Below the pieces are notes generated by a model. It was not told the DNA's origin, searched no databases, and was given only the letters and a program-made list of their open reading frames with translations. Shown piece by piece: positions 18,601-64,000 of a DNA stretch of 64,000 nt. Source of the stretch: Anaerolineae bacterium (GTDB taxonomy: Bacteria; Chloroflexota; Anaerolineae; JAAYZQ01); the NCBI GenBank assembly GCA_034429215.1, contig DAOUGI010000126.1:49213-113212 (forward strand), read 5' to 3'. The translations under genes were made by a program, and so were the position numbers. Numbering within the stretch: the first letter of the stretch is position 1; each line of letters starts with the position of its first letter.

Positions 18601-18831
18601 GCTCTCGGCCAGGCCGCCGCCCCAATAGCCGACCGAAACGGTCGACTCATAGCCGCTCGACGCGGCCGTGTCGACCAGGGCCGGGTAGGTGGCGCCCTGC
18701 ACCTCAGTGGCGTGCGGGCGCCGCGCCACCAAGATAACGGCTGTCACCGCGACCGCCAGCAGCACAACCGCGCCGGCGGCAATGAGCAGAAACCGCCGGC
18801 TGCGGATCGTTTCCTTCCAGTTTTTGGCCAT
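12667..18831 (-). CDS. Bacterial alpha-2-macroglobulin family protein with thioester motif, N-terminal TM anchor
   Basis: 2054 aa. N-terminal TM helix (FLLIAAGAVVLLAVAVTAVILVA). Ig-like/MG domain repeats. CxEQ thioester motif RFECSEQLAS, coded at 14140-14151. A2M receptor-binding-like C-terminus. Confidence 0.85.
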   Translation of the reverse strand: MAKNWKETIRSRRFLLIAAGAVVLLAVAVTAVILVARRPHATEVQGATYPALVDTAASSGYESTVSVGYWGGGLAESGGEQLLIRLSEGQAGQQAIESLPPVQGEPLSDDEIAAILARLPELTAEPGEQMELHLPPDSPPPPRPGQTVEEDFPPPAAVVVPEPPAAGPLHVLRYAPEGQIALAPFLNVTFDQPMAPLATLEALAAADVPVRLEPSLPGTWKWLGTKTLSFEYDSTQIDRLPMATEYVATVPAGTRSATGGVLAEEVRWTFSTPPPRMIASYPPSGSPQPLSPVFLVVFDQRIDPAAVLKTIAVTAGGSPAPVRLATADDLAADKDAGRAADGAEESRWLAFVAEQPLPADAAVSVMVGPGTPSAEGPLVSTEAQSYGFSTYAPLRIVRHGCSWYQDDCRPLAPLFIEFNNPLDADVYQDKMLRIELALAGATVDVSGNTITIHGATTGLTTYTAVVSGSLQDIFGQTLGQDASLTFKIGSAEPALYGPEESFVTLDPASKTPVLTVYTINYTHLRVRAYQVQPSDWPSFRTYLENYYRQGYQAEPLGRPAIDKIMPLEAATDALTEVSIDLSSALEGGLGHLIVIVEPDPLPDRDRYWQPVQVWVQATRIGLDAFADHGQMMVWATVLQNGAPLSGVTIEGQNRSGGVGSFGGAAVTGEDGTARLDLSGRNAVLLVAKKGSDTAILPRSPYAWSDEAWESRPASDELRWYVFDDRGIYRPGEEVHVKGWLRRVGSRQDGDVGLVPVESVSYRVISSQGNEMATGQAEANALGGFDLAFTLPNNANLGYATIELTAQGSLGDLATSWQYGHSFQIQEFRRPEFEVTARNETPGPYFAGGPVSHASGGSATVAVEAAYYAGGPLPNAEVTWQVSSSPGSYSPPNWPDFIFGRWQPWWYRDWYYPPYRGETKVETFSGVTDASGTHFLQLDFEQEGEPQPMSIRAEATVMDVNRQAWAAATTLLVHPADLYVGLRCDRTFVQRGEPLDIDIIVTDLDGAPVPDRPVQVQAARMEWRSVRGTWQQEAVDVQECSVGSGSEPVSCTFKTEMGGQYQITATVTDSSGRKNQSQFTRWVSGGQQPVSRKVEQEQVTLIPDKESYQPGDVAQVLVQSPFSPAEGLLTVSRSGILYTERFRVEDGTVTLSVPIEDKHIPNLHLQVDLVGAAARTDDQGEAVEGAPPRPAYARGELSLSIPPLQRTLKLQVTPREKELEPGGQTTLDLLLTGPDGRPVADAELAVVVVDEAILALTGYQLADPLAVFYAERPADLESRYGRDSIILANPEALASQDREVALLGAADTMAVEESVVLQMAAPTSAPSAAKEMEDAAEAKPIRVRTDFNPLATFAPKVRTDANGAAQVEVTLPDNLTRYRVMVVAVAGGSHFGSGEANLTARLPLMVRPSAPRFLNFGDQLELPVVVQNQTDEPLTVDVALQATNLELTAGAGRRVTVPARDRVEVRFPAITIQAGTARFQVAAVSGSFADAATVELPVYTPATTEAFATYGVVDEGAIAQPLAAVGDDVFTQFGGLEISTSSTALQALTDAVLYLTSYRFECSEQLASRILAISALRDVLQAFSAEGLPAPEEMESAVKRDIERLQVLQNDDGGFPYWSRRRESIPFNTVHVAHALQRAESMDFAVPADMRSRVLDYLRQIEGYYPSWYGEDTRHTVSAYALYVRHLMGDGDAAKAKKLLNTAGLEKLSLDAAAWLWQVMLDDSGSAAEVEAIARHIANRAVETAGAANFTTAYSDHAYLLLRSDRRTDAIILDALIAAEPDSDLIPKVVNGLLAHRKQGRWDNTQENVFVLLALDRYFDTFESQTPDFVARIWLGDTYVGEHAYQGRTTERHESGVPMSYLASLGSAQDLIVSKEGPGRLYYRLGLRYAPTDLTLDPVDMGFVVQRSYEAVDDPADVTRDEQGVWHIKAGARVRVRLKMVADNRRYHVALVDPLPAGLEIVNPALAVSGDVPQDPSSPDYRYGWWWWGTWYEHQNMRDERAEAFAALLWEGVYDYTYIARATTPGTFVVPPAKAEEMYSPEVFGRSGSDRVIVE

Positions 18832-18921
18832 AAGATCTCCCCCTTGAAAACGGACTTGCTATATGCCAGACGTCAAGGGCGGCAGAGTAGTTCCACACAT
18901 GTCACCGCCGGCCATGCCGTT

Positions 18922-19968: not shown

Positions 19969-21894
19969 TCAGCGCAAGACGCGCTCGTCGCCAACGCGAC
20001 GGGTGATGCGCTTTTCGTCCAGGTAGTTGACCAGGGCCAGGGCGTATTTGCGGCTGGCGCCAAAGAGGTCGCGGACCTGGGCGACGGTGATCGTCGGGTT
20101 CTCGTGCAAGAAAGCGACGATCCGGTCGCGCATCTGCTCGTAGGTTTCGGTCAAAAAGATGACGTCCTCGTTAAGCCGGACCAGACGGCTCTGCTCGAGC
20201 AGAGCGTTAAGGACTTGAGCGCCGACGATCTCTTCACACTGGGCCACCGACGGCGTGGTATAAGGGCTCTCGCGGAAAAGGTGGAGGAGGTAATCGACCT
20301 GGCGCTGCTGGGCAGGGGTAAAGCTCGCCTGGTGAGAGGCCAGCCGCAGGGTGGTGGCATCCCCGGCCAGCCAGCCCTCGGTGCCGGCCAGGGCAGCGAT
20401 CTCGTTGAACAAGCGTGGGGTGACGGCCGGCAGGCGCTGGCTCAGGCGGCTCTTGACCTCTTCGCGGGGCATGCCGGCGCGCAGTGGGAACTGGGCGTGG
20501 TACTCGCCCAGCAGGCTTTCCAGCCGCTCGCGCAGCTCGCCCCAGCCGGAGCGGGTGACGACGAAATGGGCGTCGGGGATCGGCGGCAGGGGATCGGCGA
20601 TGCTGAATTTGGCATCGAGGACAAGAACCTGGCCGTCGCGGACGAGGACCGGCAAGGCATCCCTGGCCTGCTGCCGCGCCAGGCTGCTGCGGGCCAGCAG
20701 GTCACCCACTTCCGACGGCTGGCGGCGCTCGAGGGCCTGGACCAGGATCTCCTCAGGCGTGCCGTGGATCAGCGTCTCCAGTTGGGCGACGATCTCTGGC
20801 CGAAAGCGCTGGTGACGGCGGCCGGGAAAAGGGTTCACGACGATACCGCCGCCGACGGTGACGCTGGGCGATGGCTGGCGGAGGATGAAACGATCGCCCT
20901 TGACCAGGGCAACCGGCGCGGCCAGGCGGATTTGGACCCAGGCCTCGTCGCCGGGGACCAGGACTTCTTTGTCAAGAAGGCGGACCCAGGCGGGGGCCTC
21001 AGCCGCGCCGCTGAAAAAGTCGACCTGGGCATTGTGCTTTAGCGGGCCGGGGGCATCGGCCAGGTAGCGAAAATGGCAATCGACCAAGGTTGTCGGCTTG
21101 AGCCAGCCGGGCACCGTTACGACCTCGCCGCGCTGTACCTGGTCCTTGCTGACGCCGGTGAGATTGACGGCAACGCGGCTGCCCGGCACGGCCTGCTCGA
21201 CCTTGGCCTTGTGAGTTTGCAGGCCACGGATGCGGGCCCTGAGCCCCGATGGCAGGAACTCGACCTCCTGGCCGGTGGACAGCGGACCATCGCTGAGGGT
21301 GCCGGTGACCACCGTGCCAAAACCAGAGATGGTAAAGACCCGATCGACCGGCAGGCGGGCCCGGCCCACGTTGCGGCGCGGGGCGGCCGTGTCCAGGACG
21401 CGCTCCAGCTCGACGATCAGTTGGTCCAATCCCTGCCGGGTCCGCGCCGAACAGCGGACGATCGGCGCTCTGGTCAGGACGGTGCCGTCGAGAACATCGA
21501 GGAGGTCCGCCTCGACCAGCTCGAGCCAGTCTTCGTCCTGGACGGCGTCGACCTTGGTCAGGGCGACAACGCCCCCGTGAACGTGGAGCAGGTCGAGAAT
21601 AGCCAGGTGCTCGCGGGTTTGGGGCATGACCCCTTCGTCGGCAGCAACGACAAACAGGGCAGCGTCGATACCGCCCACACCGGCGAGCATGTTCTTGATA
21701 AAGTCTTTGTGGCCGGGGACGTCGACGATGCCGACCTGCTCACCGCCCGGCAAGGCCAGCCAGGCAAAGCCCAGGTCGATGGTCATGTCGCGTTCTTTTT
21801 CTTCCTTAAGCCGGTCGGGATCGATGCCGGTCAGGGCATGGACCAGGGTGGACTTGCCATGATCGACGTGGCCGGCGGTGCCTATTACGCGCAA
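19969..21894 (-). CDS. selB: Selenocysteine-specific translation elongation factor
   Basis: GTPase motifs GHVDHGKST, DVPGH and TKVD. Long C-terminal winged-helix extension ending ...RKYALALVNYLDEKRITRRVGDERVLR. TTG start lies 3 nt after the stop of the upstream gene. Confidence 0.88.
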   Translation of the reverse strand: MRVIGTAGHVDHGKSTLVHALTGIDPDRLKEEKERDMTIDLGFAWLALPGGEQVGIVDVPGHKDFIKNMLAGVGGIDAALFVVAADEGVMPQTREHLAILDLLHVHGGVVALTKVDAVQDEDWLELVEADLLDVLDGTVLTRAPIVRCSARTRQGLDQLIVELERVLDTAAPRRNVGRARLPVDRVFTISGFGTVVTGTLSDGPLSTGQEVEFLPSGLRARIRGLQTHKAKVEQAVPGSRVAVNLTGVSKDQVQRGEVVTVPGWLKPTTLVDCHFRYLADAPGPLKHNAQVDFFSGAAEAPAWVRLLDKEVLVPGDEAWVQIRLAAPVALVKGDRFILRQPSPSVTVGGGIVVNPFPGRRHQRFRPEIVAQLETLIHGTPEEILVQALERRQPSEVGDLLARSSLARQQARDALPVLVRDGQVLVLDAKFSIADPLPPIPDAHFVVTRSGWGELRERLESLLGEYHAQFPLRAGMPREEVKSRLSQRLPAVTPRLFNEIAALAGTEGWLAGDATTLRLASHQASFTPAQQRQVDYLLHLFRESPYTTPSVAQCEEIVGAQVLNALLEQSRLVRLNEDVIFLTETYEQMRDRIVAFLHENPTITVAQVRDLFGASRKYALALVNYLDEKRITRRVGDERVLR

Positions 21895-21897
21895 GGT

Positions 21898-23091
21898 CTA
21901 TTCCTGTTTAGGTCGATCTTCAAGAAGGCGGGTTATTTCACCCTGCCAGCGGCGCGCATCCTGGGTCTGAATAGCGATCTGACCTTCCAGGAACTTCCAC
22001 AAGGCGCCGATCTGGATCTGGTGTTGAGATAGCATCTTTTCGACAGGGAGAAAGTGCTCATTGGTTTCCTTGTTACGCTTGGCCTGCTCGCCCCACTGGT
22101 GTTCCCAGCCCAAAACCTCTTTTTTCCAACGCTTTTCGTTTTCCTCCTGCCACTGTTCGAGCTGGTGCTTCTGTCGTTCTTCGGCCAGGCGCTGCAGCTC
22201 GGATGTCTGGGTTTGCTCGCGGGCGATCCGTTCCTGAAAGCGCTCGACCGACGCGACCACCTGGCGGTCTTTTTGAAAAGCCTCGGCGAACTGACCGATG
22301 CGGATGTGAAAATCGTCGATCCGCTTGACCTGCTCGGTTATGGTGGCCAACGCCTCGGCGGTTTGGCGCTTGACCGCTTCCATTTCCAGGAGCTGGCCGT
22401 CGACAAACTCGCGCTGCGCGCCACGGAGCTGGGCCACCAGCTCACGCAGCTCGGTCAGGTTGCGCTCCTGGCGGACCGTGGTGTCCTGGATGGTCTGCGT
22501 CCGCGAGTTGAGCTGCTCGGTGCGCTTGAGGGCCTCGAGCGATTCCTGCTGCAGTTGGGCGACGCGCTTGGCTTCCTGCTGGCGGGCGTCTTCGAGGAAG
22601 GGAATGGGACGCAGGCGGTCTTCTGTTTCCTTGGTCAGAGCGGCGACCTGTTGTTGCACGTTCAGCACCGTCTCGCCCACGCGCTGCTGTTCGGCCTTGC
22701 GCAGGGCTACTTCTTCGTCAAGGCGAGGCAGTCGCTGGAGGTCACGGCGGATCTCATTGACGGCCCGCGAGGTATTGTCACGCTCGATGGCCCGCACCCG
22801 CTCGGCCTCGCGGGTTTCGTGCTGGCGGCGCTCCTCCGCCTCCTGGAGCATCAACGTTACTTCGTCTTTGAGCTGGCGCAAGGCAGCCTCGAGCTGGCTG
22901 AACTTGAGGAGTTGGGCCTGCAGGCCGGCCAGGCGGCCCTCCAGGTCCTGGATGGTGCGCGACTGGTCACTGAGCTGCCCTTCCTGGCTCTCGAGCCGCT
23001 GCTGAAGCCGGATTAGCTCGGCCTTGTCGCGGCGGTGCTCTTCGTCCAGCCAGGTCGTCATCTGCGTGAGTTGATTTATTTCCATCGACAT
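21898..23091 (-). CDS. Coiled-coil protein of unknown function
   Basis: Heptad-rich and E/Q/R/L-rich throughout, with no recognisable catalytic motif. Start ATG at 23091 (MSMEINQ...). Confidence 0.5.
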   Translation of the reverse strand: MSMEINQLTQMTTWLDEEHRRDKAELIRLQQRLESQEGQLSDQSRTIQDLEGRLAGLQAQLLKFSQLEAALRQLKDEVTLMLQEAEERRQHETREAERVRAIERDNTSRAVNEIRRDLQRLPRLDEEVALRKAEQQRVGETVLNVQQQVAALTKETEDRLRPIPFLEDARQQEAKRVAQLQQESLEALKRTEQLNSRTQTIQDTTVRQERNLTELRELVAQLRGAQREFVDGQLLEMEAVKRQTAEALATITEQVKRIDDFHIRIGQFAEAFQKDRQVVASVERFQERIAREQTQTSELQRLAEERQKHQLEQWQEENEKRWKKEVLGWEHQWGEQAKRNKETNEHFLPVEKMLSQHQIQIGALWKFLEGQIAIQTQDARRWQGEITRLLEDRPKQE

Positions 23092-23147
23092 GGGTAATGC
23101 CTCTCCATAATGTGAGCGATTCAAATCACTGCCACAAATCGCAGGGC

Positions 23148-23804
23148 CTAATCATTCAAGGTGACGATCTCGCCCGAGACGACAAAGATGATGCGCTCGG
23201 CGATATTGGTCGTCCGGTCGGCGATCCGCTCCAGGTTGTGGGCGACCCACAACAGGTAGGTGGCCTGCTGGATAGTCCGCGGATCTCGCACCATGATCGC
23301 CAGCAGGTCGTCAAAGACCTGGCTATATAGGTTGTCCACCACCGTATCGGCCGCCGCGACCCGGCGAGCGGTCTCGGCGTCCCGGTCGGCAAAGGCCTGT
23401 AGGATGTCCAACAACATGCGGCGGCCCTCTTCGGCCATGTGCGGAATGTCGATCAGAGGTTTGATAAACGGCTGGCCGGCCAGCCTGATCGCCAGCTTGG
23501 CGATGCCTTCGGTATAGTCGCCGATCCGCTCCAGCTCTGCAGCGATGTTGGTCACGGCCAACAGGGTGCGCAGATCGCCGGCCATCGGCTGCTGGGTGGC
23601 GATCAGAACCAGGCACTTTTCGTCGATGTCGTGTTGAGCACTGTTGACTTGATCGTCGCCGTCGATGACCTGCTGAGCCAGCTTGACGTCCTGGCGGACA
23701 AGGGCCTGGATCGACAGGTCGAGCGCATGGGCCACCATCTGCCCCACCAGCAACAGGTCCTCCAGCAACTCGTCAATCTGTTCTTTGAATACTTGCCTGA
23801 CCAT
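23148..23804 (-). CDS. phoU: Phosphate signalling complex protein PhoU
   Basis: Two PhoU repeats: ...AELERIGDYTEGIA... and ...AHNLERIADRTTNIAE.... The ATG at 23804 is preceded by GGAGGAGA. The longer 290-aa ORF is rejected. Confidence 0.88.
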   Translation of the reverse strand: MVRQVFKEQIDELLEDLLLVGQMVAHALDLSIQALVRQDVKLAQQVIDGDDQVNSAQHDIDEKCLVLIATQQPMAGDLRTLLAVTNIAAELERIGDYTEGIAKLAIRLAGQPFIKPLIDIPHMAEEGRRMLLDILQAFADRDAETARRVAAADTVVDNLYSQVFDDLLAIMVRDPRTIQQATYLLWVAHNLERIADRTTNIAERIIFVVSGEIVTLND

Positions 23805-30709: not shown

Positions 30710-30764
30710 CGCTCAGGATGACAATCCTCCAAAAGAGGTCAACCTGAGCGAAGCGAAGCATCTC
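30710..30764. repeat. Dispersed repeat family A (core CCTGAGCGAAGCGAAGC), paired half-sites
   Basis: CGCTCAGGATGACAA (inverted half) ... GTCAACCTGAGCGAAGCGAAGCATCTC. A further degenerate core (CATGCTGAGCAAAGCGAAC) overlaps the GT2 start at 30776. Confidence 0.65.
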
Positions 30765-55143: not shown

Positions 55144-55464
55144 ATGAGAAAACATGACGAGCATCACCACTGCCACGGTCACGGCGGTGAGGGTCACTGG
55201 GGCAAAGGCCCGCAGCACCCCCATCACGGCCACGGCGGACACGAGGGGCACGAGTGCTGCGGCGGACACGGTGGGCATCGACGCCACGACGGCGAGTGCT
55301 GCCGCGGCGGCGAGGGCAGGGGCATGGGCCCCGGCGCCCCCTTCAGGCGGCACTTTCCCACGCGCGAAGAGCAGATCGCCTGGCTCGAGGAGTACCTGAA
55401 AGAGCTTCAGGCCGAAGCCAAGGGCGTGGAAGAGCGGATCGCCGAGCTGCAAGCCGGCGAGTAA
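55144..55464 (+). CDS. His/Cys-rich small protein with DUF5320-like C-terminal coiled coil
   Basis: MRKHDEHHHCHGHGGEGHWGKGPQHPHHGHGGHEGHECCGGHGGHRRHDGECC... then REEQIAWLEEYLKELQAEAKGVEERIAEL. The ATG at 55144 is 8 nt after AAAGGAGG. Confidence 0.7.
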   Translation: MRKHDEHHHCHGHGGEGHWGKGPQHPHHGHGGHEGHECCGGHGGHRRHDGECCRGGEGRGMGPGAPFRRHFPTREEQIAWLEEYLKELQAEAKGVEERIAELQAGE

Positions 55465-55466
55465 GA

Positions 55467-55505
55467 GGGACGGGCGGCGCACCTATTGGGTGCGCCGCCC
55501 GTCCC
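55467..55505. terminator. Perfect 17-bp-stem hairpin between convergent genes
   Basis: GGGACGGGCGGCGCACC-tattg-GGTGCGCCGCCCGTCCC. Confidence 0.7.
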
Positions 55506-55513
55506 TATTGGGC

Positions 55514-56959
55514 TCACTCCCCCACACCCTCCAGGTCGCGGTCGGCGGCGCGCAGGATGTCGTCCAGCTCACCGATGACGCCGTCGGGCAGGGGATCGAC
55601 CAGGGGGCCTTCGAGGATGGCCCGGACCTGCTCGCGGGCGGCCGAGTAGAGGGTGGGCCGGCCCAGCTCGGCCCAGGCTTCGTAGGTGTGGCGGTCGAAG
55701 AGGCGGGGGATGTAGAACTCGCCGCTGCGGGCCGCCCGGCGGGTGCCTTTTTCCATCAAAAAGTGGCCGCCCGGCCCCACGGCGGCTATCTCGTCAAAGA
55801 GGTCTTTTTCGGGCGCGCAGTCGACCCCCTCGCACAGCCGCTGGCACAGGTGGGCGATCTCGTTGTCGACCAGGATCTGTTCGAGGACCAACAACTGGTC
55901 GCTTTCGATCTCGCCATAGCCGACGATGATGTCGGCGCCGGCCATGGCCGGGGGGAGGGTGGTGATCAGCTTTTCGATGACGGCTTCGGGCCCGGCGATC
56001 TTGGCGTCGGAGGTGCAGCCCGCCCCGCCGTTGGGCAGATCGTAAAAGCGGCCCATGGCGGCCAGCGCGGCGGACTGGAGGCCCATCTCGGCGGTGCCGG
56101 CCAGGTAGCCGCCGCTGCGAAAGTCGAGCGAGCCGATGGCGCTAGCGTAGATGAGAGGCCGGCCGGGGTGGGCGAGCTGGTAGATGACGATGGCCGACAG
56201 GGCCTCGGCGTTGGCCACGGCGATGTTGGAGAAGAGACCGGCCGGGCCGGTGGTGCCGTTGACCGGCATGGGCATGAGCATGACCGGCAGGTCGAACTCG
56301 CCCAGCTCCAGGTAGGCGTCGAGCATCTGTCCATCGTGGGTCAGGGGGGCGATGGTGCAGTAGATGAGGGAATAGTCCTTGCATGCCTTGAGCGCGTCTT
56401 CGCTGCCGGCGACCGCCTTGAGGGCGGCGACCAGGTAGGGCACCTGCTCGACGCAGTGCAGCTCGTGCTGGGCGTGCTTGGACGAGTATTTGATCATGGT
56501 GACGAACTCGTGGAGCGCCCGGGAGTGGGCCGGAGCATCGGAGGCGCAGGTGGGCGCCCAGGACATGACGCCCAGGTCGGCCTGCTGAAAGACGCGCAGA
56601 GAGTCCTGGATGTCGCGGCGGGTGCCGTAGCGCCGCTCGCCGGTGTCGAAATCGACGACAAAGGCGGCGGTGCCGTCGATGCCGTAGCGGGAGGCGGGCG
56701 AGGGCAGCGGAAGGCTCAGGGCGGGGTTGCGGGCGCCCAGGACGAACGACTTGGGGGTGGTGGCCAGGGCCTGCTCTACCAGCTCGACGGGGATGCGGGC
56801 GATGCCGGCGCCGTCGTCGATCTGGGCGCCGCAGCGGCGGAGGATGGGCAGGGCCTTGTGGCCGTGAAAGCGGACGCCCACCTCGGCCAGGATGCGGAGG
56901 CTCTGGTTGTGGACGCGGAGCTGTTCTTCTTGGGAAAGGGCTTGTGCGGTAAATTTCAT
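55514..56959 (-). CDS. MttB-superfamily (trimethylamine methyltransferase-like) protein, non-Pyl, paralog 1
   Basis: 481 aa with no in-frame TAG. LSQEEQLRVHNQSLRILAEVGVRF, PMPVNGTTGP, ...VGPGGHFL.... Confidence 0.8.
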   Translation of the reverse strand: MKFTAQALSQEEQLRVHNQSLRILAEVGVRFHGHKALPILRRCGAQIDDGAGIARIPVELVEQALATTPKSFVLGARNPALSLPLPSPASRYGIDGTAAFVVDFDTGERRYGTRRDIQDSLRVFQQADLGVMSWAPTCASDAPAHSRALHEFVTMIKYSSKHAQHELHCVEQVPYLVAALKAVAGSEDALKACKDYSLIYCTIAPLTHDGQMLDAYLELGEFDLPVMLMPMPVNGTTGPAGLFSNIAVANAEALSAIVIYQLAHPGRPLIYASAIGSLDFRSGGYLAGTAEMGLQSAALAAMGRFYDLPNGGAGCTSDAKIAGPEAVIEKLITTLPPAMAGADIIVGYGEIESDQLLVLEQILVDNEIAHLCQRLCEGVDCAPEKDLFDEIAAVGPGGHFLMEKGTRRAARSGEFYIPRLFDRHTYEAWAELGRPTLYSAAREQVRAILEGPLVDPLPDGVIGELDDILRAADRDLEGVGE

Positions 56960-56979
56960 ATGGGTTCTCCTTCAAAAAT

Positions 56980-57004
56980 AGATGCTTCGCTTCGCTCAGC
57001 ATGG
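56980..57004. repeat. Dispersed repeat family A copy overlapping the 3' end of MttB paralog 2
   Basis: AGATGCTTCGCTTCGCTCAGCATGG. Its reverse complement is CCATGCTGAGCGAAGCGAAGCATCT. Confidence 0.65.
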
Positions 57005-58444
57005 CAGATGATGGGCGCCTGCCCTGGCACGGGCTTCAAGGCGGGCCAGGTCGCGCTCGACGGGGTCGGGCAGGGGCAAGGGGCGATGGGTTACCAGCAG
57101 GTGGGACACCTGGTCGCGGAGGTCGGACAGCAGGTCGGGGCGGCCGGCAGCGTTCCAATGCTCAAAGGTGTCGCCGACGCCCACCTTGCTGATGTACCAC
57201 TCGCCGCGGCGGATGCCGTCGCGGCCGGATGGCTCGGCCAGAAAGTGGCCGCCCGGCCCCACGGCGTCGATTACCTCTTCGAGCCACCGGTCGGGGCCGG
57301 TGCCAATGCCGGCGCACAGCCGCCTGCAGCGGCGGAAGACTTCGACGTCGATCAGAAGCTGCTCCAGGCTGAGGATGGTCGCTCCGCCCAGCAGGCCGGG
57401 GCCGAGCAGGAGGTCGGGCCAGGAGAGGGCGGGCAGGGCCCAGTTGAGCGCCCGCTCGTAGCCGGCCTGGATGCTGGGGATGTGGTGGCCGGTGCCACCG
57501 GTGGAGGTCTCGGAGGGCAGGCCGTAGTAGCGGGCCATTTCGGTGACGGCGGCGCCAAGGAGAGCGTGCTCGACCTGGCCGCCGGTGTACCGGCCGGAGT
57601 GGGGGTCCATGACGCCCGGAGCGGGAGCATAGATGACCGGGGCGCCCGGGGCGGCGGCCTGGACGAGGCAGAGCATGGCCAGCACTTCGCAGTTGGCCAG
57701 GACGAGGGTGGAGATGAGGCCGGCAGGGGCGGTGGCGCCCATGATCGGCATGGGCATGATGGCCACCGGCAGGTCCCAGCCGACGGTCTCCAGGTAGGCG
57801 TCGGTGTAATCGGCCTCGATGACCAGCGGCGACAGGGGGCAGAGCAGGAAGGAGACGGGGTGCAGGCGGCGGACCTCCTCTTGGCTGCCAAAGACGGCCT
57901 GGAGCACTTCTAGCATCCAGCGGGACTGCTCGGGGGTGACCGGACAATCCTGGACGTGCTTGGAGAAGCAGCGGAAGATGTCCCGCCAGTAGGCGACGAG
58001 GTCGCCCAGGGAGCGCTCGGCAAAGGTTGGCTCGACCATGGCCCAATAGACGCCGACCTCGTCGAGGACGTCGAGCAGGCGGGTGGCGGCCAGCCAGTCG
58101 GCGGCGATCGCCGGCCGCCGCTCGCCGGTCAGGCTGTCATAGACAAAGACGGCGCCCCCGTCGGCCTGGAGGACGCACTCGCCGGCGTTCATGGGGAGGG
58201 ACCAACCCGGCCGGCGGCCGCCCAGGCTGAAGCGGCGCGGGGCCGCTTGCAGGCAGGTCTCGACCAGGGCGCGGGGGAAGCGGACGATGGCGGTGCAGTC
58301 GTCGACTTGAGCGCCGGCCTCGGCCAGGATGCGCCTGCCACGGGAGGTGTCCACCCGGACGCCGGTGGCGGACAGGAGGTGGAGGGTGCGGTCGTGCACC
58401 TGGGCGCGGTCGTTTTCGGACAGAATCTGCAGCGCTGCTCTCAT
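56996..58444 (-). CDS. MttB-superfamily protein, non-Pyl, paralog 2
   Basis: 482 aa. LSENDRAQVHDRTLHLLSATGVRV, PMPIMGATAP, VGPGGHFLAE. The last codons (..CCA TGC TGA) lie in a family A repeat. Confidence 0.8.
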   Translation of the reverse strand: MRAALQILSENDRAQVHDRTLHLLSATGVRVDTSRGRRILAEAGAQVDDCTAIVRFPRALVETCLQAAPRRFSLGGRRPGWSLPMNAGECVLQADGGAVFVYDSLTGERRPAIAADWLAATRLLDVLDEVGVYWAMVEPTFAERSLGDLVAYWRDIFRCFSKHVQDCPVTPEQSRWMLEVLQAVFGSQEEVRRLHPVSFLLCPLSPLVIEADYTDAYLETVGWDLPVAIMPMPIMGATAPAGLISTLVLANCEVLAMLCLVQAAAPGAPVIYAPAPGVMDPHSGRYTGGQVEHALLGAAVTEMARYYGLPSETSTGGTGHHIPSIQAGYERALNWALPALSWPDLLLGPGLLGGATILSLEQLLIDVEVFRRCRRLCAGIGTGPDRWLEEVIDAVGPGGHFLAEPSGRDGIRRGEWYISKVGVGDTFEHWNAAGRPDLLSDLRDQVSHLLVTHRPLPLPDPVERDLARLEARARAGAHHLPC

Positions 58445-58468
58445 TCAGGGCCGATCCTTGAAATTAGA

Positions 58469-58544
58469 TCTCCCCCTCACCCCAACCCTGCCACCTCACC
58501 GGTGGCACTGTACAGCGGTCTCCCCAAAGGGGAGAGGGAGCTAG
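58469..58544. repeat. GC-rich repeat family B (two hairpins + C/G tracts) in the spacer 5' of MttB paralog 2
   Basis: TCTCCCCCTCACCCCAACCCTGCCACCTCACCGGTGGCACTGTACAGCGGTCTCCCCAAAGGGGAGAGGGAGCTAG. Alignable with 62741-62811. Confidence 0.65.
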
Positions 58545-59722
58545 TGTGGGTCCATTTCTACCAGGCCGTAGGGCAGGTCGTAGGTTGGCATCAGGGACAG
58601 GTAGGGATCGGGGTCGAAGGCCTCGGGACCCAGGACGCCGCTTGCCTGCCAGACGCCGCTGGCCAGGAGATCCATGGCTATCACCGGGCAGGCGCCGGTC
58701 TGGAAGGCGACGGCCTGGCAGCCGTACTTGGCCATGCTGAAAGCGTTGTCGGTGGACTGGTAGAGGTAGACCTGGCGGGGCCTGCCGTCTTGCCAACCGG
58801 TGACCCAGGCGCCGACGCAGGTCTTGCCGGTCATCCGGCCGCCGAGGCGGGCGGGGTCGGGCAGGCAGGCCACCACGACGTCGCGCGGCGCGACCCGGAC
58901 CCCTTTGACATTGACCGGCTCGGCGCTGTCCATGCCCAGCAGCTTGATGACCTTGATGGCGTTCATGAACTGGGCATCGAGCCCATATTTGAAGGTGACC
59001 CGCCGGCACTTGATCCAGCGGGGGATGAGCACGACCTCTTCGTGCTCGACACTGACACACTCGACCGGCCCGATGCCCTCGGGAAAGTTGAAAACCTCCG
59101 GATCGGAAAATGGCGGCGTGACGAGCCAGCCTTTGTCCCGCTCCCAGACGAGAGCGGGGTCGGTGCACTCTTCGATGGTGTCGATGATGGAAAAGGTGGG
59201 GGCAAAGTCGTAACCGCTGATTTTCAGGGCGCCCACGTCGCGGATGGCTATCTCGTCGATCTCGTCGAACAGGTGCTTGGCGGCATATTTGGCCAAGACG
59301 TCGGACGCGCCGGGATCCATGCCGATGCCCAGGATGGCCAGCAGCCCCTTTCGCTCCCAATCGCCGGCGCGGGCGAACTGGTAGGCGCCCATGTTGGAGC
59401 CGGTGTCTTCCATGGCCATGTCGAGGTAGGCGCAGCCGGCCTGGAAGGCGGCGTCGAAGATGAAGCGGTTGTAAAAGTTGGTGACGGCGTTCATGATGAG
59501 GTCGACGCCGTGCCGGCGGGCCAGGGCCACGATCTGGGCGGTGTCCCTGGCGTCGACCTGCTCGACCGGGAAGGTATCGGGCGACGCCAGCTTGTGGCGC
59601 ACTTCACGGGCGCGCTCCAGGCTATAGTCGGCCAGGACCATCTTTTCGAGCCAGGGGCGGCCAGCGGCGACGGTAGCGATCGCCTCGCCTACAGCCCCCA
59701 CACCGATGAGAAGTACTTTCAT
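58541..59722 (-). CDS. Saccharopine dehydrogenase-family NAD(P) oxidoreductase
   Basis: MKVLLIGVGAVGEAI Rossmann motif. The Sacchrp_dh N- and C-domain layout is collinear by eye. The ATG at 59722 is preceded by AAGGAGG. Confidence 0.78.
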   Translation of the reverse strand: MKVLLIGVGAVGEAIATVAAGRPWLEKMVLADYSLERAREVRHKLASPDTFPVEQVDARDTAQIVALARRHGVDLIMNAVTNFYNRFIFDAAFQAGCAYLDMAMEDTGSNMGAYQFARAGDWERKGLLAILGIGMDPGASDVLAKYAAKHLFDEIDEIAIRDVGALKISGYDFAPTFSIIDTIEECTDPALVWERDKGWLVTPPFSDPEVFNFPEGIGPVECVSVEHEEVVLIPRWIKCRRVTFKYGLDAQFMNAIKVIKLLGMDSAEPVNVKGVRVAPRDVVVACLPDPARLGGRMTGKTCVGAWVTGWQDGRPRQVYLYQSTDNAFSMAKYGCQAVAFQTGACPVIAMDLLASGVWQASGVLGPEAFDPDPYLSLMPTYDLPYGLVEMDPH

Positions 59723-59748
59723 GCTGCGCCTCCTTGAAAATGGGTAAA

Positions 59749-59796
59749 GAGATGCTTCGCTTCGCAGCCGCGAGCGGCCCTGCATGTCAGCATGAC
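59749..59796. repeat. Dispersed repeat family A copy (interrupted) between MttB paralog 3 and the dehydrogenase gene
   Basis: GAGATGCTTCGCTTCGC-(AGCCGCGAGCGGCCCTGCATG)-TCAGCATGAC. Confidence 0.55.
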
Positions 59797-59813
59797 GGTC
59801 CTGTCAGACGCTC

Positions 59814-61265
59814 CTAGATGTCTCGGTCGGCCGCGGCCAGGATGCGCGACAGCTCGGCCTGCTGCGCTCGCTCCAGCGGCCGGGGATGGTGGTTGTTCAG
59901 GATCCAGTCGACCTTGTCGCGGGCCACGTCGATCGGGTCGCGGAGCCCACCGGTCCCGTCGGGTTGGCCGGTGAGGCCGGAAAAGACCCGGCGGCGCATC
60001 TGGTCGCGGGTGTGGCGCTGGCGCATAAAGTGGCCGCGCGGCCCGACCGCCTTGATGACGTCGAGGGCCAGCGCTTCGCTGCTGGTGTCCAGCCCGGCCG
60101 CCTCGATGCGGACCCGGTGGTAGACGTCGCTGTCGAGCACGACCGCCTCGGGGTAGAGGAGGGTGCACGCCTCGAGCAGGCCCAGGCCGCTGCCGGTCTC
60201 GGCGCCGACCAGGGTGCACAGCAGCAGGGAAGAGGCCGCGTCGCCGGCCGACTGCCAGCCGGGCACCGGGGCGTCGGTGCCAAAGACGCCGGCCAGCGAC
60301 GGCACGCCCCAGCCGTGGGCCAGCTCGACGCCCAGCGCATAGGGCAAGGTCCCCTCCCAGGCGGTGGCCAGGTAGCCGCCGCTGTGGGGGTGCATGATGC
60401 CGGGCATGAGCGAGTGGTAGACCGGCGCGCCGGGGGCGGCCATCTGGATGAGGGCCATGGCGGCCACGATCTCGGCGTCGCCGGCCACGAGCGTGCCGGC
60501 CACCGTGGCCGGACCGGTCGAGCCGACGTTGGCCATGGACATGAAACCGACGGGCAGGCCGGCCTCGGCAAAGACGAGGGCCGATTCGATCCCCTCTTTG
60601 TCCTGGCCGAGGGGGGCGATGCAGCAGACCAGCAGGGACAGGGGCGGGCGACGGCGCATGGCCGCATCGTCGCCGGCGACGACGCGGGCCATCTCGACGG
60701 CATAACGGGCGGCCCTTTCGCCCATGACCGTCTCGGACTGGACGTGCTTGACGGTGTTGTTGAAAGAGGCGTCCAGCTCGTGGAGCGGGGCGGTGGCCGG
60801 GAAGTCGGCGGCGCTGACGATGGGCCAGTAAAAGCCGATGGAGGACAGGTAGTCGGCCACGCGGGCCATGGCGGCCACGTCCTCCTTGGTCGAGCGGCGC
60901 CGGCGGCGGGTCTGAAAGTCGATCGTCTCTACGCCGCAGCCGTCGGTGGCGCAATAGAGGGCTTTGCCGTCCAGGACAAGGTCGTGGGCCGGCGAGCGGG
61001 CGCCCATGGTGTAAAAGCGGGGGGCGCGGGCCATGGCATCGAGCACGACGCCGGGCGGCAGGCGGACGATCTGCCGGTCGAAATCGACCCGCGCGCCGTG
61101 CTCGGCATAGATGTGCAGGGCCCTGGCCGAGGGGCAGTGGATGCCGACCTGGTCCAGGACGTCCAGCACGGCCGAGCGGAGCCGGTGCAACTGCTCGTCG
61201 TCCAGGATGCGCAGGTGATAAGCCGGGGCGATCGGCTGGAGCGGCGGGGTGGCGGTGCAGCTCAT
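59814..61265 (-). CDS. MttB-superfamily protein, non-Pyl, paralog 3
   Basis: 483 aa starting MSCTATPPLQPIAPAYHLRILDDEQL. The start overlaps the stop of paralog 4 (ATGA). The 755-aa ORF N-terminus is rejected. Confidence 0.8.
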   Translation of the reverse strand: MSCTATPPLQPIAPAYHLRILDDEQLHRLRSAVLDVLDQVGIHCPSARALHIYAEHGARVDFDRQIVRLPPGVVLDAMARAPRFYTMGARSPAHDLVLDGKALYCATDGCGVETIDFQTRRRRRSTKEDVAAMARVADYLSSIGFYWPIVSAADFPATAPLHELDASFNNTVKHVQSETVMGERAARYAVEMARVVAGDDAAMRRRPPLSLLVCCIAPLGQDKEGIESALVFAEAGLPVGFMSMANVGSTGPATVAGTLVAGDAEIVAAMALIQMAAPGAPVYHSLMPGIMHPHSGGYLATAWEGTLPYALGVELAHGWGVPSLAGVFGTDAPVPGWQSAGDAASSLLLCTLVGAETGSGLGLLEACTLLYPEAVVLDSDVYHRVRIEAAGLDTSSEALALDVIKAVGPRGHFMRQRHTRDQMRRRVFSGLTGQPDGTGGLRDPIDVARDKVDWILNNHHPRPLERAQQAELSRILAAADRDI

Positions 61266-62716
61266 TCGCGCAGCTCCTGCTGGGCCGCGGCCAGGATGCG
61301 GGCCAATTCGGCCTGTTTGGCCCCTTCGAGCGGAGCCGGGTGGTGGTTGTCGAGGATCCAGCGGACCTGCTCGCGGGCCACCTGCTGCGGGTCGCGGTAG
61401 TGGCCGGTATCGTCCAGGTGGTGGGTGATGGCGCGGAGCATCGATTGGCGCATGTGCTTGATGGTGTGCTTTTCGAGCAGGAAATGCCCGCCGGGCTTGA
61501 CGGAGGCGATGACGTCGAGGGCCAGGGTCTCGGGGCTGATCTCCACGGCCTGGAGGTAGTAGCGGGCGCGGTGGTAGAGGTCGCTGTCCATGACGAGCTG
61601 CTCGGGGTTGAGGAGGGTATAGGTGCGGGCCAGGCCCATGCCGGTGACGATCTCGGCGCCGGTGAGGCCGACCAGAAAGCTGTCGAGGGCCGTCTCGGCG
61701 GCCGACTGCCAGGTGCCGGCGGTGAGGGAATCGGTGCCGAAGCAGGCGCCCAACGACGGCATGCCCCAGTGGTGGGCCATTTCGACCACGGCGTAGCGGC
61801 CACGGCTGTCGAGGGGGTAGCTGACATAGCCGCCGGTGCGCATGTCGGCCCAGGCGTGCATCAGGGAGTGGAAGACAGGCGCTCCGGGCGAGGCAAGCTG
61901 GATCAGGACCGCCGCGCTGACGATCTCGGCGTCGCCCACAGCCAGCGCGCCGGCCAGGGTGACGGGCGCGGTGGTGCCCATGGTGGGCATGGCCAGAAAG
62001 CCGACCGGGATGCCGGCCTCGGCCATGACGAGGGTGCCCTCGATGCCGTGCTTGTCCTGGGACAGCGGGGCGATGGTGCACACCACCAGCGACAGGGGAG
62101 GACGGCGGCGAAGCTCCTCACGGCTGCCGGCGATCACCGTGCCCATCTCGACGGCGTAGCGGCATTCGGCCTCGCCCATGATCGTTTCGCTCTGGACGTG
62201 CTTGACGGTGTTGTTCCAGGAGGCATCCATCTCTTGCAGAGGAGCGGTCCGGCCATAATCCTGGGCGCTGACCATGGGCCAGTAAAAGGCGACGGAGGAG
62301 AGATAGTCGGACACGCGGGCCATCATGCCGACGTCGGCTTTGCACGACAGGCGGCGCTGACCGGTGTCGAGGTCGACGGTCTCGGTGCCGCAGCCATCGG
62401 TGGTGAAAAAGGTCGCGCCGTCCTCGAGGTGGAGGTCAAAGGCCGGGTCGCGGGCGCCCAGGTGGAAGTAGCGGGGCAGGGTGGACAAGGCCTTGAACAC
62501 CAGGTCCCTGGGGATCTTGCAGACCTGGGTGGCGCGGTCTATGCGGGCGCCGTGATCGGCCAGGATGGTCAGCGCCCTGTCGGAGGGGAAGCGGACCCCC
62601 ACCTCTTCCATGATGCGGAGGGTGGCTTCCTGGAGCCGATCCAACTGGTCATCGGTCAGGAAGCGCAGGGCATAGGATGAACGGATCGGTTCGATGGCAG
62701 GTGTGTTTTCGGGCAT
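61262..62716 (-). CDS. MttB-superfamily protein, non-Pyl, paralog 4
   Basis: 484 aa starting MPENTPAIEPIRSSYALRFLTDDQL, with AAGGAG upstream of the ATG. Collinear with paralog 3 (DASWNNTVKHVQSETIMGE versus DASFNNTVKHVQSETVMGE). Confidence 0.8.
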   Translation of the reverse strand: MPENTPAIEPIRSSYALRFLTDDQLDRLQEATLRIMEEVGVRFPSDRALTILADHGARIDRATQVCKIPRDLVFKALSTLPRYFHLGARDPAFDLHLEDGATFFTTDGCGTETVDLDTGQRRLSCKADVGMMARVSDYLSSVAFYWPMVSAQDYGRTAPLQEMDASWNNTVKHVQSETIMGEAECRYAVEMGTVIAGSREELRRRPPLSLVVCTIAPLSQDKHGIEGTLVMAEAGIPVGFLAMPTMGTTAPVTLAGALAVGDAEIVSAAVLIQLASPGAPVFHSLMHAWADMRTGGYVSYPLDSRGRYAVVEMAHHWGMPSLGACFGTDSLTAGTWQSAAETALDSFLVGLTGAEIVTGMGLARTYTLLNPEQLVMDSDLYHRARYYLQAVEISPETLALDVIASVKPGGHFLLEKHTIKHMRQSMLRAITHHLDDTGHYRDPQQVAREQVRWILDNHHPAPLEGAKQAELARILAAAQQELRE

Positions 62717-62740
62717 TTGGCTTTCTCCTTTTGTTGGGGA

Positions 62741-62811
62741 TTCCCCCCACCCCACCCTGTCCCCCTTCGGGTGGCACCGTACAGCGGTCTCCCCCCTGGG
62801 GAGAGGGCTAG
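62741..62811. repeat. GC-rich repeat family B in the spacer 5' of MttB paralog 4
   Basis: TTCCCCCCACCCCACCCTGTCCCCCTTCGGGTGGCACCGTACAGCGGTCTCCCCCCTGGGGAGAGGGCTAG. Confidence 0.65.
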
Positions 62812-63746
62812 ACCTCTCCCACTTTTTTGAGCACTTTGTGCGGGTCAAAGGCGTCGCGCAGGCCGTCGCCGATATAGTTGGCCGAGATGATGGTCAGAAA
62901 GATCATCAGGCCGGGAAAGATGGCCAGCCAAGGGTACTTGGTCAGGTACTCTTGGGCGTTGCTCAGCAGGTTGCCCCAGCTCGGCGTGGGGGGCTGGATG
63001 CCAAAGCCCAGGAAGCTCAGCCCTGACTCTTCGATGATGGCATAGCCCAGCCCCAAAGTGGCTTCGACGATGATGGGGCCGATGGCGTTGGGCAGGATGT
63101 GGGTGACGATGAGCCGGCGGTTCGAGGCCCCCACGCAGCGGGCGGCGGTGACGAAATCCATCTCGCGGATGGTGAGAAAGGCGGCGCGGACCAGCCGGGC
63201 GAAGGTCATCCACGACAGCGCGCCTATCACCAGGCCGATGGTGAGGACGTTGTTCCGCTCGAACAGCGGGGCGTCGACCTCGCGCAGGATGGCGCTGAGC
63301 AGGATCAGGACAAGGAACGCCGGCAGGGAGAGAAAGATGTCGGTCAGGCGCATCAGGATGGTGTCCACCCGCCCACCGTAAAAGCCGGCCACCGCGCCTA
63401 TGGGCACACCGATGGCCAGCGAGATGGCGACGACAAGAAGGCCGACCAGCAGGGAAATGCGCCCGCCATAGAGCACCCGGGTCAGCAGATCGCGGCCGAG
63501 GGCATCGGCGCCCATGGGGTGCTGCCAGGAAGGCGGCTGGAAGCGGGCCGAGAGGTCGGAGATTTCCGGATCGTAGGGCGATAGGGAGGCCAGGAGAACG
63601 GCCAGGGTGAGCAGGCCCAGGACGATGGCTCCGACGATGGCCCCGGGGTGGCGGCGGAAGCGGCGCCAGACGCTCATGCTCCCGCTGCGGGCGCTAACCC
63701 GAGAGGTTTCCGAGGCGATGTTTGCCGGGGCGGTAGATTGAGACAT
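62808..63746 (-). CDS. Peptide/opine-type ABC transporter permease (DppC/OppC family)
   Basis: N-terminal OppC-type segment and the binding-protein-dependent transport motif region ...ARCVGASNRRLIVTHILPNAIGPIIV.... Confidence 0.85.
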   Translation of the reverse strand: MSQSTAPANIASETSRVSARSGSMSVWRRFRRHPGAIVGAIVLGLLTLAVLLASLSPYDPEISDLSARFQPPSWQHPMGADALGRDLLTRVLYGGRISLLVGLLVVAISLAIGVPIGAVAGFYGGRVDTILMRLTDIFLSLPAFLVLILLSAILREVDAPLFERNNVLTIGLVIGALSWMTFARLVRAAFLTIREMDFVTAARCVGASNRRLIVTHILPNAIGPIIVEATLGLGYAIIEESGLSFLGFGIQPPTPSWGNLLSNAQEYLTKYPWLAIFPGLMIFLTIISANYIGDGLRDAFDPHKVLKKVGEV

Positions 63747-63756
63747 GGTGAGAGCC

Positions 63757-64000
63757 CTAATCGTAGCGGATCCGGGGATCGACGACGGCGTAGAGGACGT
63801 CGGCCAGGAGGTTGGACAGGATGATGGCCGCGGCGCCGATGATCAGGACGGCCAGCAGGACGGGATAGTCGCGCTGGAGGGCCGACTGGTAGTAGAGGCG
63901 GCCCATGCCGGGCCAGGAGAAGATCATCTCGACAAAGACGGTGCCGCCGATGAGGTAGGGCAGGTCCAGGGCAAGGAGGGTCACCAGGGGGATGACCGCG
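63757..64000 (-). CDS. Peptide/opine-type ABC transporter permease (DppB/OppB family), C-terminal part; gene runs off the window
   Basis: ...ETIFSWPGMGRLYYQSALQRDYPVLLAV...LLADVLYAVVDPRIRYD. The reading frame is open to position 64000. Confidence 0.8.
   Translation of the reverse strand, partial: AVIPLVTLLALDLPYLIGGTVFVEMIFSWPGMGRLYYQSALQRDYPVLLAVLIIGAAAIILSNLLADVLYAVVDPRIRYD

Follow-up and report, generated by a model that had tools for sequence, protein, structure and literature searches.

The DNA considered here, which we call the window, is a stretch of 64,000 nucleotides (nt) from an Anaerolineae bacterium (assembly GCA_034429215.1, contig DAOUGI010000126.1), and its terminal part, between positions 55514 and 64000, carries on the minus strand a co-directional string of genes that may constitute a cassette for the catabolism of N-methylated amines. 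The order of the genes is OppB-like, OppC-like, MttB-4, MttB-3, saccharopine-dehydrogenase-like, MttB-2 and MttB-1. The OppB-like ATP-binding cassette (ABC) permease is present as its 3' part (63757 to beyond 64000; PF00528, E 2e-18), the remainder lying past the window end, and is followed by an OppC-like ABC permease of 312 amino acids (aa; 62808-63746; PF00528 and PF12911 OppC_N). The four MttB-like genes, each of which defines an orthogroup designated M1 to M4, are MttB-4 (484 aa, 61262-62716; PF06253, E 4e-60; PDB 7xcl, E 2e-50), MttB-3 (483 aa, 59814-61265; PF06253, E 5e-58), MttB-2 (482 aa, 56996-58444; PF06253, E 9e-64) and MttB-1 (481 aa, 55514-56959; PF06253, E 2e-81; PDB 7xcl, E 4e-59). 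Between MttB-3 and MttB-2 lies the saccharopine-dehydrogenase-family gene (58541-59722; PF03435 and PF16653), which resembles carboxy(nor)spermidine dehydrogenases and encodes 393 aa when counted from an ATG preceded by an AGGAGG site.

The genes are closely packed, with intergenic gaps of -4, 36 and 91-96 nt, the stop and start codons of MttB-4 and MttB-3 overlapping in an ATGA at 61262-61265. No convincing internal promoter or terminator was found on the sense strand of the string, and its co-transcription is plausible from the arrangement. Just past the stop codon of MttB-1, between this gene and a convergent plus-strand open reading frame (ORF), there is a G+C-rich hairpin with a perfect stem of 17 bp (55463-55509; -45.7 kcal/mol, z-score -9.3 relative to shuffled sequences), which is not followed by a U tract on the operon strand and is probably a bidirectional terminator. 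None of the MttB ORFs contains an in-frame TAG, the sole stop codon in all four being the terminal one. An initial annotation of this DNA is thus borne out in its description of the locus: the co-directional minus-strand string, for which every assignment now has Pfam support in addition to the ORF coordinates, the four full-length MttB ORFs of 481-484 aa free of in-frame TAG, the ATGA overlap and the strong hairpin closing the string.

Four diverged members of the MttB superfamily

All four paralogs match PF06253 over profile positions ~27-497 of 500, with 197-274 bits against a cut-off of 25 (E 1e-58 to 1e-81). The AlphaFold2 (AF2) model of M1, with a predicted local distance difference test score (pLDDT) of 82 and a predicted template modelling score (pTM) of 0.86, superimposes on 7xcl with a TM of 0.90 and on 2qne/9yce with a TM of 0.87, and as modelled M1 has the MttB TIM-barrel fold together with the N- and C-terminal oligomerisation regions. 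PDB searches were run for M1 and M4, for both of which 7xcl is the best match, M4 aligning full length to the same PDB chains as M1; the fold of M2 and M3 was judged from Pfam and from the alignment of the paralogs.

Within the window M3 and M4 are 54% identical and M1 and M2 36-37%, the other pairs sharing 31-34%, in agreement with the division into a close pair (3/4) and a more distant one (1/2) made initially. The suggestion of something uncharacterised is likewise supported, in that the paralogs fall outside the characterised clades with which they were compared. All four are 24-29% identical to Methanosarcina barkeri MttB and Desulfitobacterium hafniense MtgB, they lack the substrate residues of MtgB, and against TIGR02369 (NCBIfam trimeth_pyl) they score 311-346 bits, below the equivalog cut-off of 525. 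The reference sequences in this comparison were MttB, MtgB and 4YYC, while MtcB, MtyB, MtpB and MthB were compared through their reported Arg (see below). The nearest homologs are proteins from metagenome-assembled genomes of Anaerolineae or Chloroflexota. For M1 they comprise more than 120 clusters at 64-93% identity; the orthologs of M4 in three related loci (L003, L005 and L007; loci of relatives carry L numbers) are 67-69% identical, and those of M2 57-61%.

Pocket signatures

In MtgB the substrate is held by Y97 and F356, through cation-pi contacts, and by R312 and H348, which bind the carboxylate (PMC13080624). R312 is conserved in all members of the superfamily of known function that lack pyrrolysine (Pyl), all of which use acidic quaternary amines (PMC13080624; PMC12155760), and even choline needs prior phosphorylation to serve as a substrate for MthB (PMC12155760). 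We mapped the corresponding positions in the cassette proteins via sequence alignment to MtgB, using 39-88 orthologs per group. Arg at the R312 position occurs in 0/228 orthologs across M1-M4; the position of Y97 aligns to Gly, and H348 is absent from all four paralogs.

What replaces these residues differs from one orthogroup to the next. M1 has Ser, Gly or Thr at the R312 position and Asp at the F356 position (39/39), with Thr or Ser where Pyl-MttB carries pyrrolysine. In M2 the R312 position is occupied by Glu in 45/50 orthologs and by Gln in 5, the F356 position by Ser or Ala and the Pyl position by Gly. M3 has Leu (88/88), Cys (85/88) and Gly or Ala at the three positions, respectively, and M4 has Leu (48/51), Tyr or Phe (51/51; Tyr in MttB-4 itself) and Gly. 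The motif xTSDAK around the Pyl site of M1 resembles the OSDAK of Pyl-MttB, and Gly110, which forms the cis-peptide of MttB (PMC9842639), is invariant in M1-M4. None of the four paralogs contains pyrrolysine: there are no internal stops, and the residues at the Pyl position in the window are Thr (M1) and Gly (M2-M4). Inspection of the Pyl-equivalent and pocket residues, which had been recommended at the outset, thus reveals neither Pyl nor the glycine-betaine set of MtgB in any paralog.

The pattern indicates that selection maintains a separate pocket signature in every orthogroup and that, judged by these residues, none of the four pockets suits an acidic betaine. The Glu of M2 and the Asp of M1, taken together with the missing Arg, make non-acidic, cationic methylated amines, for example compounds resembling methylated di- or polyamines, the most likely substrates, although we hold this assignment less firmly than the general scheme of the cassette set out below.

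Conservation of the cassette in relatives

The gene calls in the relatives were made with a crude ORF picker based on the G+C content of third codon positions (GC3), orthogroups were assigned by best phmmer match, and the trees are neighbour-joining trees only. With these means the arrangement proves to be conserved, and the possibility, raised initially, that it might lack counterparts in any relative does not apply. Three loci with dehydrogenase homologs 65-72% identical to that of the window (L003, L005, L007) contain the same four MttB genes with SBP_bac_5, OppB and OppC, and a metagenome scan with the M3 alignment revealed 80 further loci; 85 cassette loci were annotated locally, of which 42 hold all four orthogroups. 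The core consists of the binding protein, the two permeases and the four MttB orthogroups. The commonest order is SBP-B-C-M4-M3-M2-M1 (SBP denoting the solute-binding protein, B and C the two permeases), the second being SBP-B-C-M2-M4-M3-M1; M4 and M3 are neighbours almost without exception, and their adjacency, in this direction, was counted 65 times in related loci. Among Anaerolineae from sediments, wetlands, peat and soils the cassette is of common occurrence.

Each locus contains one best match for each paralog of the window. Identity in the relatives amounts to 57-72% within orthogroups and to 26-36% between them, except for M3 versus M4 (51-55%). High identity within and low identity between orthogroups, with a single match per paralog, point to a quartet that is old and has been inherited together, as opposed to one that arose by amplification in place in recent times. 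M1 can be met on its own, orthologs of 68-69% identity standing alone in L169 and accompanied only by a corrinoid protein in L168.

A separate observation concerns the variant with the order M2-M4-M3-M1 (L107, L117, L119, L128, L133, L135 and L143), in which genes on the opposite strand recur just downstream of M1. These encode a protein of the amidinotransferase/arginine-deiminase fold (PF02274), an unannotated protein of ~265 aa and, often, an S-adenosylmethionine (SAM) methyltransferase.

Corrinoid and pterin-binding partners

The initial annotation had found neither a corrinoid partner nor a corrinoid:tetrahydrofolate methyltransferase in the window, and this is confirmed by three approaches. 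Pfam scans of ~40 ORFs detected no corrinoid protein and no pterin-binding methyltransferase in the window (RamA-type activases being covered by these Pfam scans only), a six-frame phmmer search of the window with the corrinoid and pterin-binding proteins of relatives as queries returned nothing (best E 0.19), and a scan of the window for the motif DxHxxG...SxL...GG gave no match. Nor are there any partner genes in the 10 kb of the source contig upstream of OppC, which extend ~6.6 kb past the window end.

Relatives do carry such genes beside the cassette. A corrinoid protein of 215-236 aa (PF02607 and PF02310) adjoins it in L003, L004, L005, L105, L130, L148, L159, L161 and L166, that of L005 passing TIGR02370 with 231 bits against a cut-off of 215 and resembling MtgC, and a PF00809 pterin-binding gene directly follows M1 in 9 loci. 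One or both partners are found in 8/24 loci that contain all four paralogs and have at least 1.2 kb visible downstream, and of the cassettes with both flanks visible 5/6 carry neither, so that more cassettes than not resemble that of the window in having no partner in cis. The lack of a partner, noted initially, is not a sign of unusual chemistry, as relatives have an MtgC-like or PF00809 gene beside the same genes. In Ruegeria pomeroyi it has been documented experimentally that the MtgB gene is unlinked from those of a shared MtgC and MtgD (PMC12478193), and by analogy we infer canonical corrinoid/tetrahydrofolate chemistry with partners supplied in trans.

The importer

On the source contig the region upstream of the MttB genes has the order SBP_bac_5 (590 aa)-OppB (346 aa)-OppC, so that a family-5 solute-binding protein and two permeases, the components by which an importer of the Opp/Dpp/Nik type is recognised, are all present. 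The best NCBIfam match of the OppC-like protein is Opp4C, just under the cut-off, and the OppB-like protein has Opp/Nik-type matches, all under their cut-offs. Of the genes that had been sought beyond position 64000, the solute-binding protein was found, but the ATPases and the corrinoid and pterin-binding genes were not, within 10 kb upstream of OppC; this interval lacks OppD/OppF ATPase genes, and past the solute-binding protein gene the contig encodes unrelated proteins (a PMP-repeat protein, a hydrolase, an APH kinase, a DEAD helicase and a ferredoxin). ATPase genes adjoin none of the five cassettes with Pfam-annotated gene calls, namely that of the source contig and those of L003, L005, L007 and L170. 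In the metagenome loci, where the gene calls are our own and ATPases were not searched, the SBP, B, C and MttB genes abut, with no room between them. It would seem that the ATPases of the cassette importer must be supplied from elsewhere, or that the transporter works in an unusual way. PDB and NCBIfam matches were tried as a guide to the ligand of the solute-binding protein and rejected as uninformative, being weak and mixed (NikA, AppA, DppA and the staphylopine-binding CntA).

The saccharopine-dehydrogenase-family gene

The dehydrogenase has full-length PDB matches to 4ina, 4rl6 and 8deb (E 1e-47 to 5e-58, the latter for 4ina), while against NF043000, the carboxynorspermidine synthase model, it reaches 200 bits relative to a cut-off of 800. 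The annotated cluster of the window does not include a carboxy(nor)spermidine decarboxylase, and the neighbour families that recur, as annotated across 80 loci, comprise none either. By our gene calls the dehydrogenase occurs in 5/42 loci with all four paralogs. It has one of two positions: in the window and its closest relatives (L089, L092-L094) it separates M3 from M2, and elsewhere it stands upstream of the SBP gene. That the pathway might be defined by the dehydrogenase, with this gene at its core, was considered and rejected, given its restriction to a minority of cassettes and its two different positions; it is an accessory of the cassette.

A scan of GTDB species genomes for the dehydrogenase yielded 80 loci at 51-67% identity in Chloroflexota, Actinomycetota (including Streptomyces) and Anoxynatronum. 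MttB genes stand beside the homolog in only 1/80 (L010), the others containing class-III aminotransferases, aldehyde dehydrogenase, a PotABCD-like transporter, AsnC, amino-acid permeases and DAO oxidases. The MttB-linked copies form one clade in the neighbour-joining tree, together with a few second copies from aminotransferase clusters, and in L003 the cassette itself is embedded among aminotransferases of the polyamine-cluster type. The initial proposal that the dehydrogenase is a pathway component acting on a lysine- or opine-like compound is thus not supported, the family being tied to clusters of polyamine type.

In other loci genes of the M2/M3 type are paired with a second, distant gene of the saccharopine-dehydrogenase family (L118, L108, L115). 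L118 (1-14523) also includes three genes like that of dimethylglycine dehydrogenase (DMGDH-like, DAO+GCV_T), an arginase-family gene, an M28 peptidase and a class-III aminotransferase, and L108 a DMGDH-like gene and an aminotransferase. The composition of the L118-type cluster points to a methylated compound, guanidino- or polyamine-like, that would be fully demethylated and broken down. This repeated, independent association would link the MttB paralogs to chemistry of the secondary-amine or polyamine type and not to that of lysine or opines.

Independently of the cassette, the dehydrogenase scan brought to light a recurrent and apparently undescribed cluster in Chloroflexota and Actinomycetota (around position 10000 in L023, L028, L037, L054, L055, L057, L083 and ~20 others), which combines several class-III aminotransferases, aldehyde dehydrogenase, a PotABCD-like importer, AsnC and a carboxyspermidine-dehydrogenase-like gene, the latter sometimes in two copies. 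It looks like a polyamine catabolic pathway with an NAD(P)-dependent secondary-amine dehydrogenase.

A proposed catabolic cassette and its alternatives

We propose that the locus exemplifies a catabolic cassette conserved among Anaerolineae-type Chloroflexota, a reading to which, in its general scheme, we would assign a probability of about 0.6. An Opp/Dpp/Nik-type importer (SBP_bac_5, OppB, OppC), energised by ATPases encoded elsewhere, would bring in one or several N-methylated amines; M1-M4 would each bind a methylammonium substrate and methylate a small corrinoid protein at its Co(I), from which a pterin-binding methyltransferase would hand the methyl group on to tetrahydrofolate. These two partners, together with a reductive activase, are predicted to be encoded elsewhere in the genome and to act as shared components in trans. 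The dehydrogenase would probably act on the carbon skeleton, where it makes or breaks a secondary-amine C-N bond either ahead of demethylation or following it.

Several considerations weigh against this proposal. Methyl transfer by the members of the cassette is itself inferred, and the pocket positions were assigned by aligning sequences to MtgB. The solute-binding protein has only a weak resemblance to binders of peptides and of nickel, which gives no pointer to its ligand. The dehydrogenase is absent from most cassettes, the link to a polyamine-like substrate thus resting on a minority of loci. Finally, neither partner family is encoded anywhere in the 64 kb of the window or within 10 kb upstream of OppC, and the same lack of both partners in five of the six fully flanked cassettes leaves some room for a corrinoid-independent mode of the cassette enzymes.

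Among other explanations, we regard it as rather unlikely that the paralogs build hetero-oligomers, M4 with M3 and perhaps M2 with M1 forming heterodimers within an assembly like the trimer-of-dimers of M. barkeri, so that the cassette would specify one or two enzymes and not four. Such an arrangement would be in keeping with the strict co-occurrence of all four orthogroups in 42 loci and with the 65 instances of adjacent M4 and M3 in the same order, the stop and start codons often overlapping or abutting, as in the ATGA of the window; moreover, in the MttB-MttC crystal structure the corrinoid protein contacts a dimer pair, and the dimerisation loop of the partner stabilises the catalytic pair (PMC9842639), while the M1 model keeps the full-length fold including the C-terminal region. 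The characterised family members, however, are homo-oligomers, the occurrence of M1 alone in L169 and with only a corrinoid protein in L168 speaks against an obligate complex, M2 and M1 are apart in the second common gene order, and a conserved pocket signature for each orthogroup is what would be expected of four separately selected active sites. Those four signatures, and the ability of M1 to stand alone, would equally fit four independent substrate-specific methyltransferases that share one broad importer, the locus being then an island for methylated amines and not one pathway, much as in organisms such as Eubacterium limosum, which has numerous MttB paralogs, every one of them with a single quaternary amine as its substrate (PMC12155760). 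For unrelated specificities, so strict a joint inheritance next to a single transporter, with a fixed M4-M3 order and among orthologs that are only 57-72% identical, would be unexpected, and one binding protein would need to deliver all four substrates, so that we consider this explanation highly doubtful.

Equally doubtful, in our estimate, is a stepwise and complete demethylation in which the paralogs strip successive methyl groups from one poly-N-methylated compound, the dehydrogenase then oxidising the amine. In its favour, there are four distinct, co-inherited types of active site, the Asp of M1 and the Glu of M2 could hold a protonated tertiary or secondary methylamine, and the dehydrogenase, like the aminotransferases near some of the loci, could act on the freed amine. 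Yet variant loci recruit DMGDH-like flavoenzymes (three copies in L118; also L108 and L149), which are the usual route for demethylating tertiary and secondary amines, and M1 is found alone. Furthermore, all characterised non-Pyl members remove a single methyl group from a quaternary amine, tertiary and lower amines being known to require pyrrolysine enzymes (PMC13080624; PMC9842639). Returning to the proposed catabolic cassette, a more specific version of it would be a Pyl-independent corrinoid system for cationic, non-acidic N-methylated amines (such as methylated di- or polyamines, or conjugates of these with peptides) that acts on multiple or successive methylammonium centres, among them those of tertiary or secondary amines bound by the Asp of M1 and the Glu of M2, possibly with M4/M3 and M2/M1 heterodimers. 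We consider this version unlikely, but if true it would extend the MttB superfamily beyond the single demethylation of acidic quaternary amines.

Repeated sequences and neighbouring genes

Two further kinds of sequence recur within the gene string. A hairpin-forming, G+C-rich repeat of 65 nt, on the minus strand, precedes each MttB pair, with one copy in the intergenic region 5' of MttB-4 (62743-62807) and the other 5' of MttB-2 (58474-58538); the copies are 78% identical and are the only 2 in the whole window, 0 being expected. The repeat has no Rfam match and is absent from the cassettes of relatives. In addition, the exact 16-mer GCGAAGCGAAGCATCT occurs 3 times in the window (56980-56995, 59750-59765 and 30748-30763) against 0.08 expected, two copies lying 20-30 nt 5' of the MttB-1 and dehydrogenase starts and the third close to where a glycosyltransferase gene begins; none of the loci from other genomes was found to contain it. 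As conserved regulators both elements were rejected, being confined to the loci of this genome and missing from relatives whose proteins are 85-90% identical, and the 65-nt repeat looks instead like a genome-specific element akin to repetitive extragenic palindromic (REP) sequences. A search of 15 kb including the operon with Rfam at permissive thresholds detected no riboswitch or other known RNA.

Elsewhere in the window, on the minus strand, a gene for the selenocysteine-specific elongation factor SelB (19969-21897) implies that the organism uses selenocysteine; the adjoining ORF of 417 aa (21898-23151) has no Pfam match. A very long minus-strand ORF of ~2064 aa (12667-18858) has a coding-like GC3.

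Relation to known systems

Full-text literature searches returned no description of the cassette or of a link between MttB and saccharopine dehydrogenase. The set of substrates given for the MttB superfamily consists of trimethylamine and five acidic quaternary amines (PMC12155760), and metagenome studies name every non-Pyl MttB homolog 'mtgB, glycine betaine' (e.g. PMC6081815), a label that is probably wrong for the cassette clade. Four co-inherited paralogs without the acid-binding Arg, two of them with acidic residues in the pocket, thus provide a lead to a possible new substrate class, and the cassette may act, so far unrecognised, as a sink of methylated nitrogen compounds where soils and sediments are anoxic or micro-oxic. 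The lead, a good one, is to new substrates and not to new chemistry.

Compared with the MtgB/MtgC/MtgA system of D. hafniense (2QNE, 9YCE), the cassette shares the PF06253 superfamily and fold (TM 0.87), the absence of pyrrolysine and, in its relatives, partners encoded in cis, namely a corrinoid protein resembling MtgC and a pterin-binding methyltransferase. It differs in having four paralogs instead of one and an Opp-type importer instead of a betaine transporter, and the paralogs, 24-28% identical to MtgB, lack Y97, R312 and H348, the aromatic character of F356 being kept only in M4. Pyl-MttB of M. barkeri (7XCL) is the best PDB match of the two paralogs searched, M1 and M4, and has in common with the cassette proteins the invariant Gly110, the xSDAK kept in M1 and a residue other than Arg at the position equivalent to R312 (Tyr in MttB); in contrast to it, the cassette genes lack an in-frame UAG, their products carry Thr/Ser or Gly where MttB has Pyl and do not conserve Tyr364, and the scores lie under the TIGR02369 cut-off.

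For partners in trans, as proposed here, the precedent is MtgB of R. pomeroyi, whose unlinked MtgC and MtgD are shared with a split methionine synthase (PMC12478193), although that system is alphaproteobacterial and comprises a single glycine-betaine enzyme. Likewise, MthB/MthK, which handles phosphocholine in E. limosum (PMC12155760), is a precedent for an accessory enzyme that modifies the substrate, and the dehydrogenase could play a comparable part; MthK, however, provides its substrate with an acidic group for recognition by the conserved Arg, which the cassette paralogs lack, and the accessory families differ. With the carboxy(nor)spermidine dehydrogenase family (8DEB, 4INA, 4RL6; NF043000) the dehydrogenase shares both Pfam domains and a full-length match, but its score is far below that of the equivalog (200 versus 800), there is no adjacent decarboxylase, and the neighbours of its own family (aminotransferases, aldehyde dehydrogenase and a Pot-like importer) suggest catabolism and not spermidine synthesis. 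Taken together, these comparisons suggest that what is known here is the framework of an MttB-superfamily corrinoid methyltransferase system, and that what would be new is the four-orthogroup architecture, the Opp-type importer and the non-canonical pocket.

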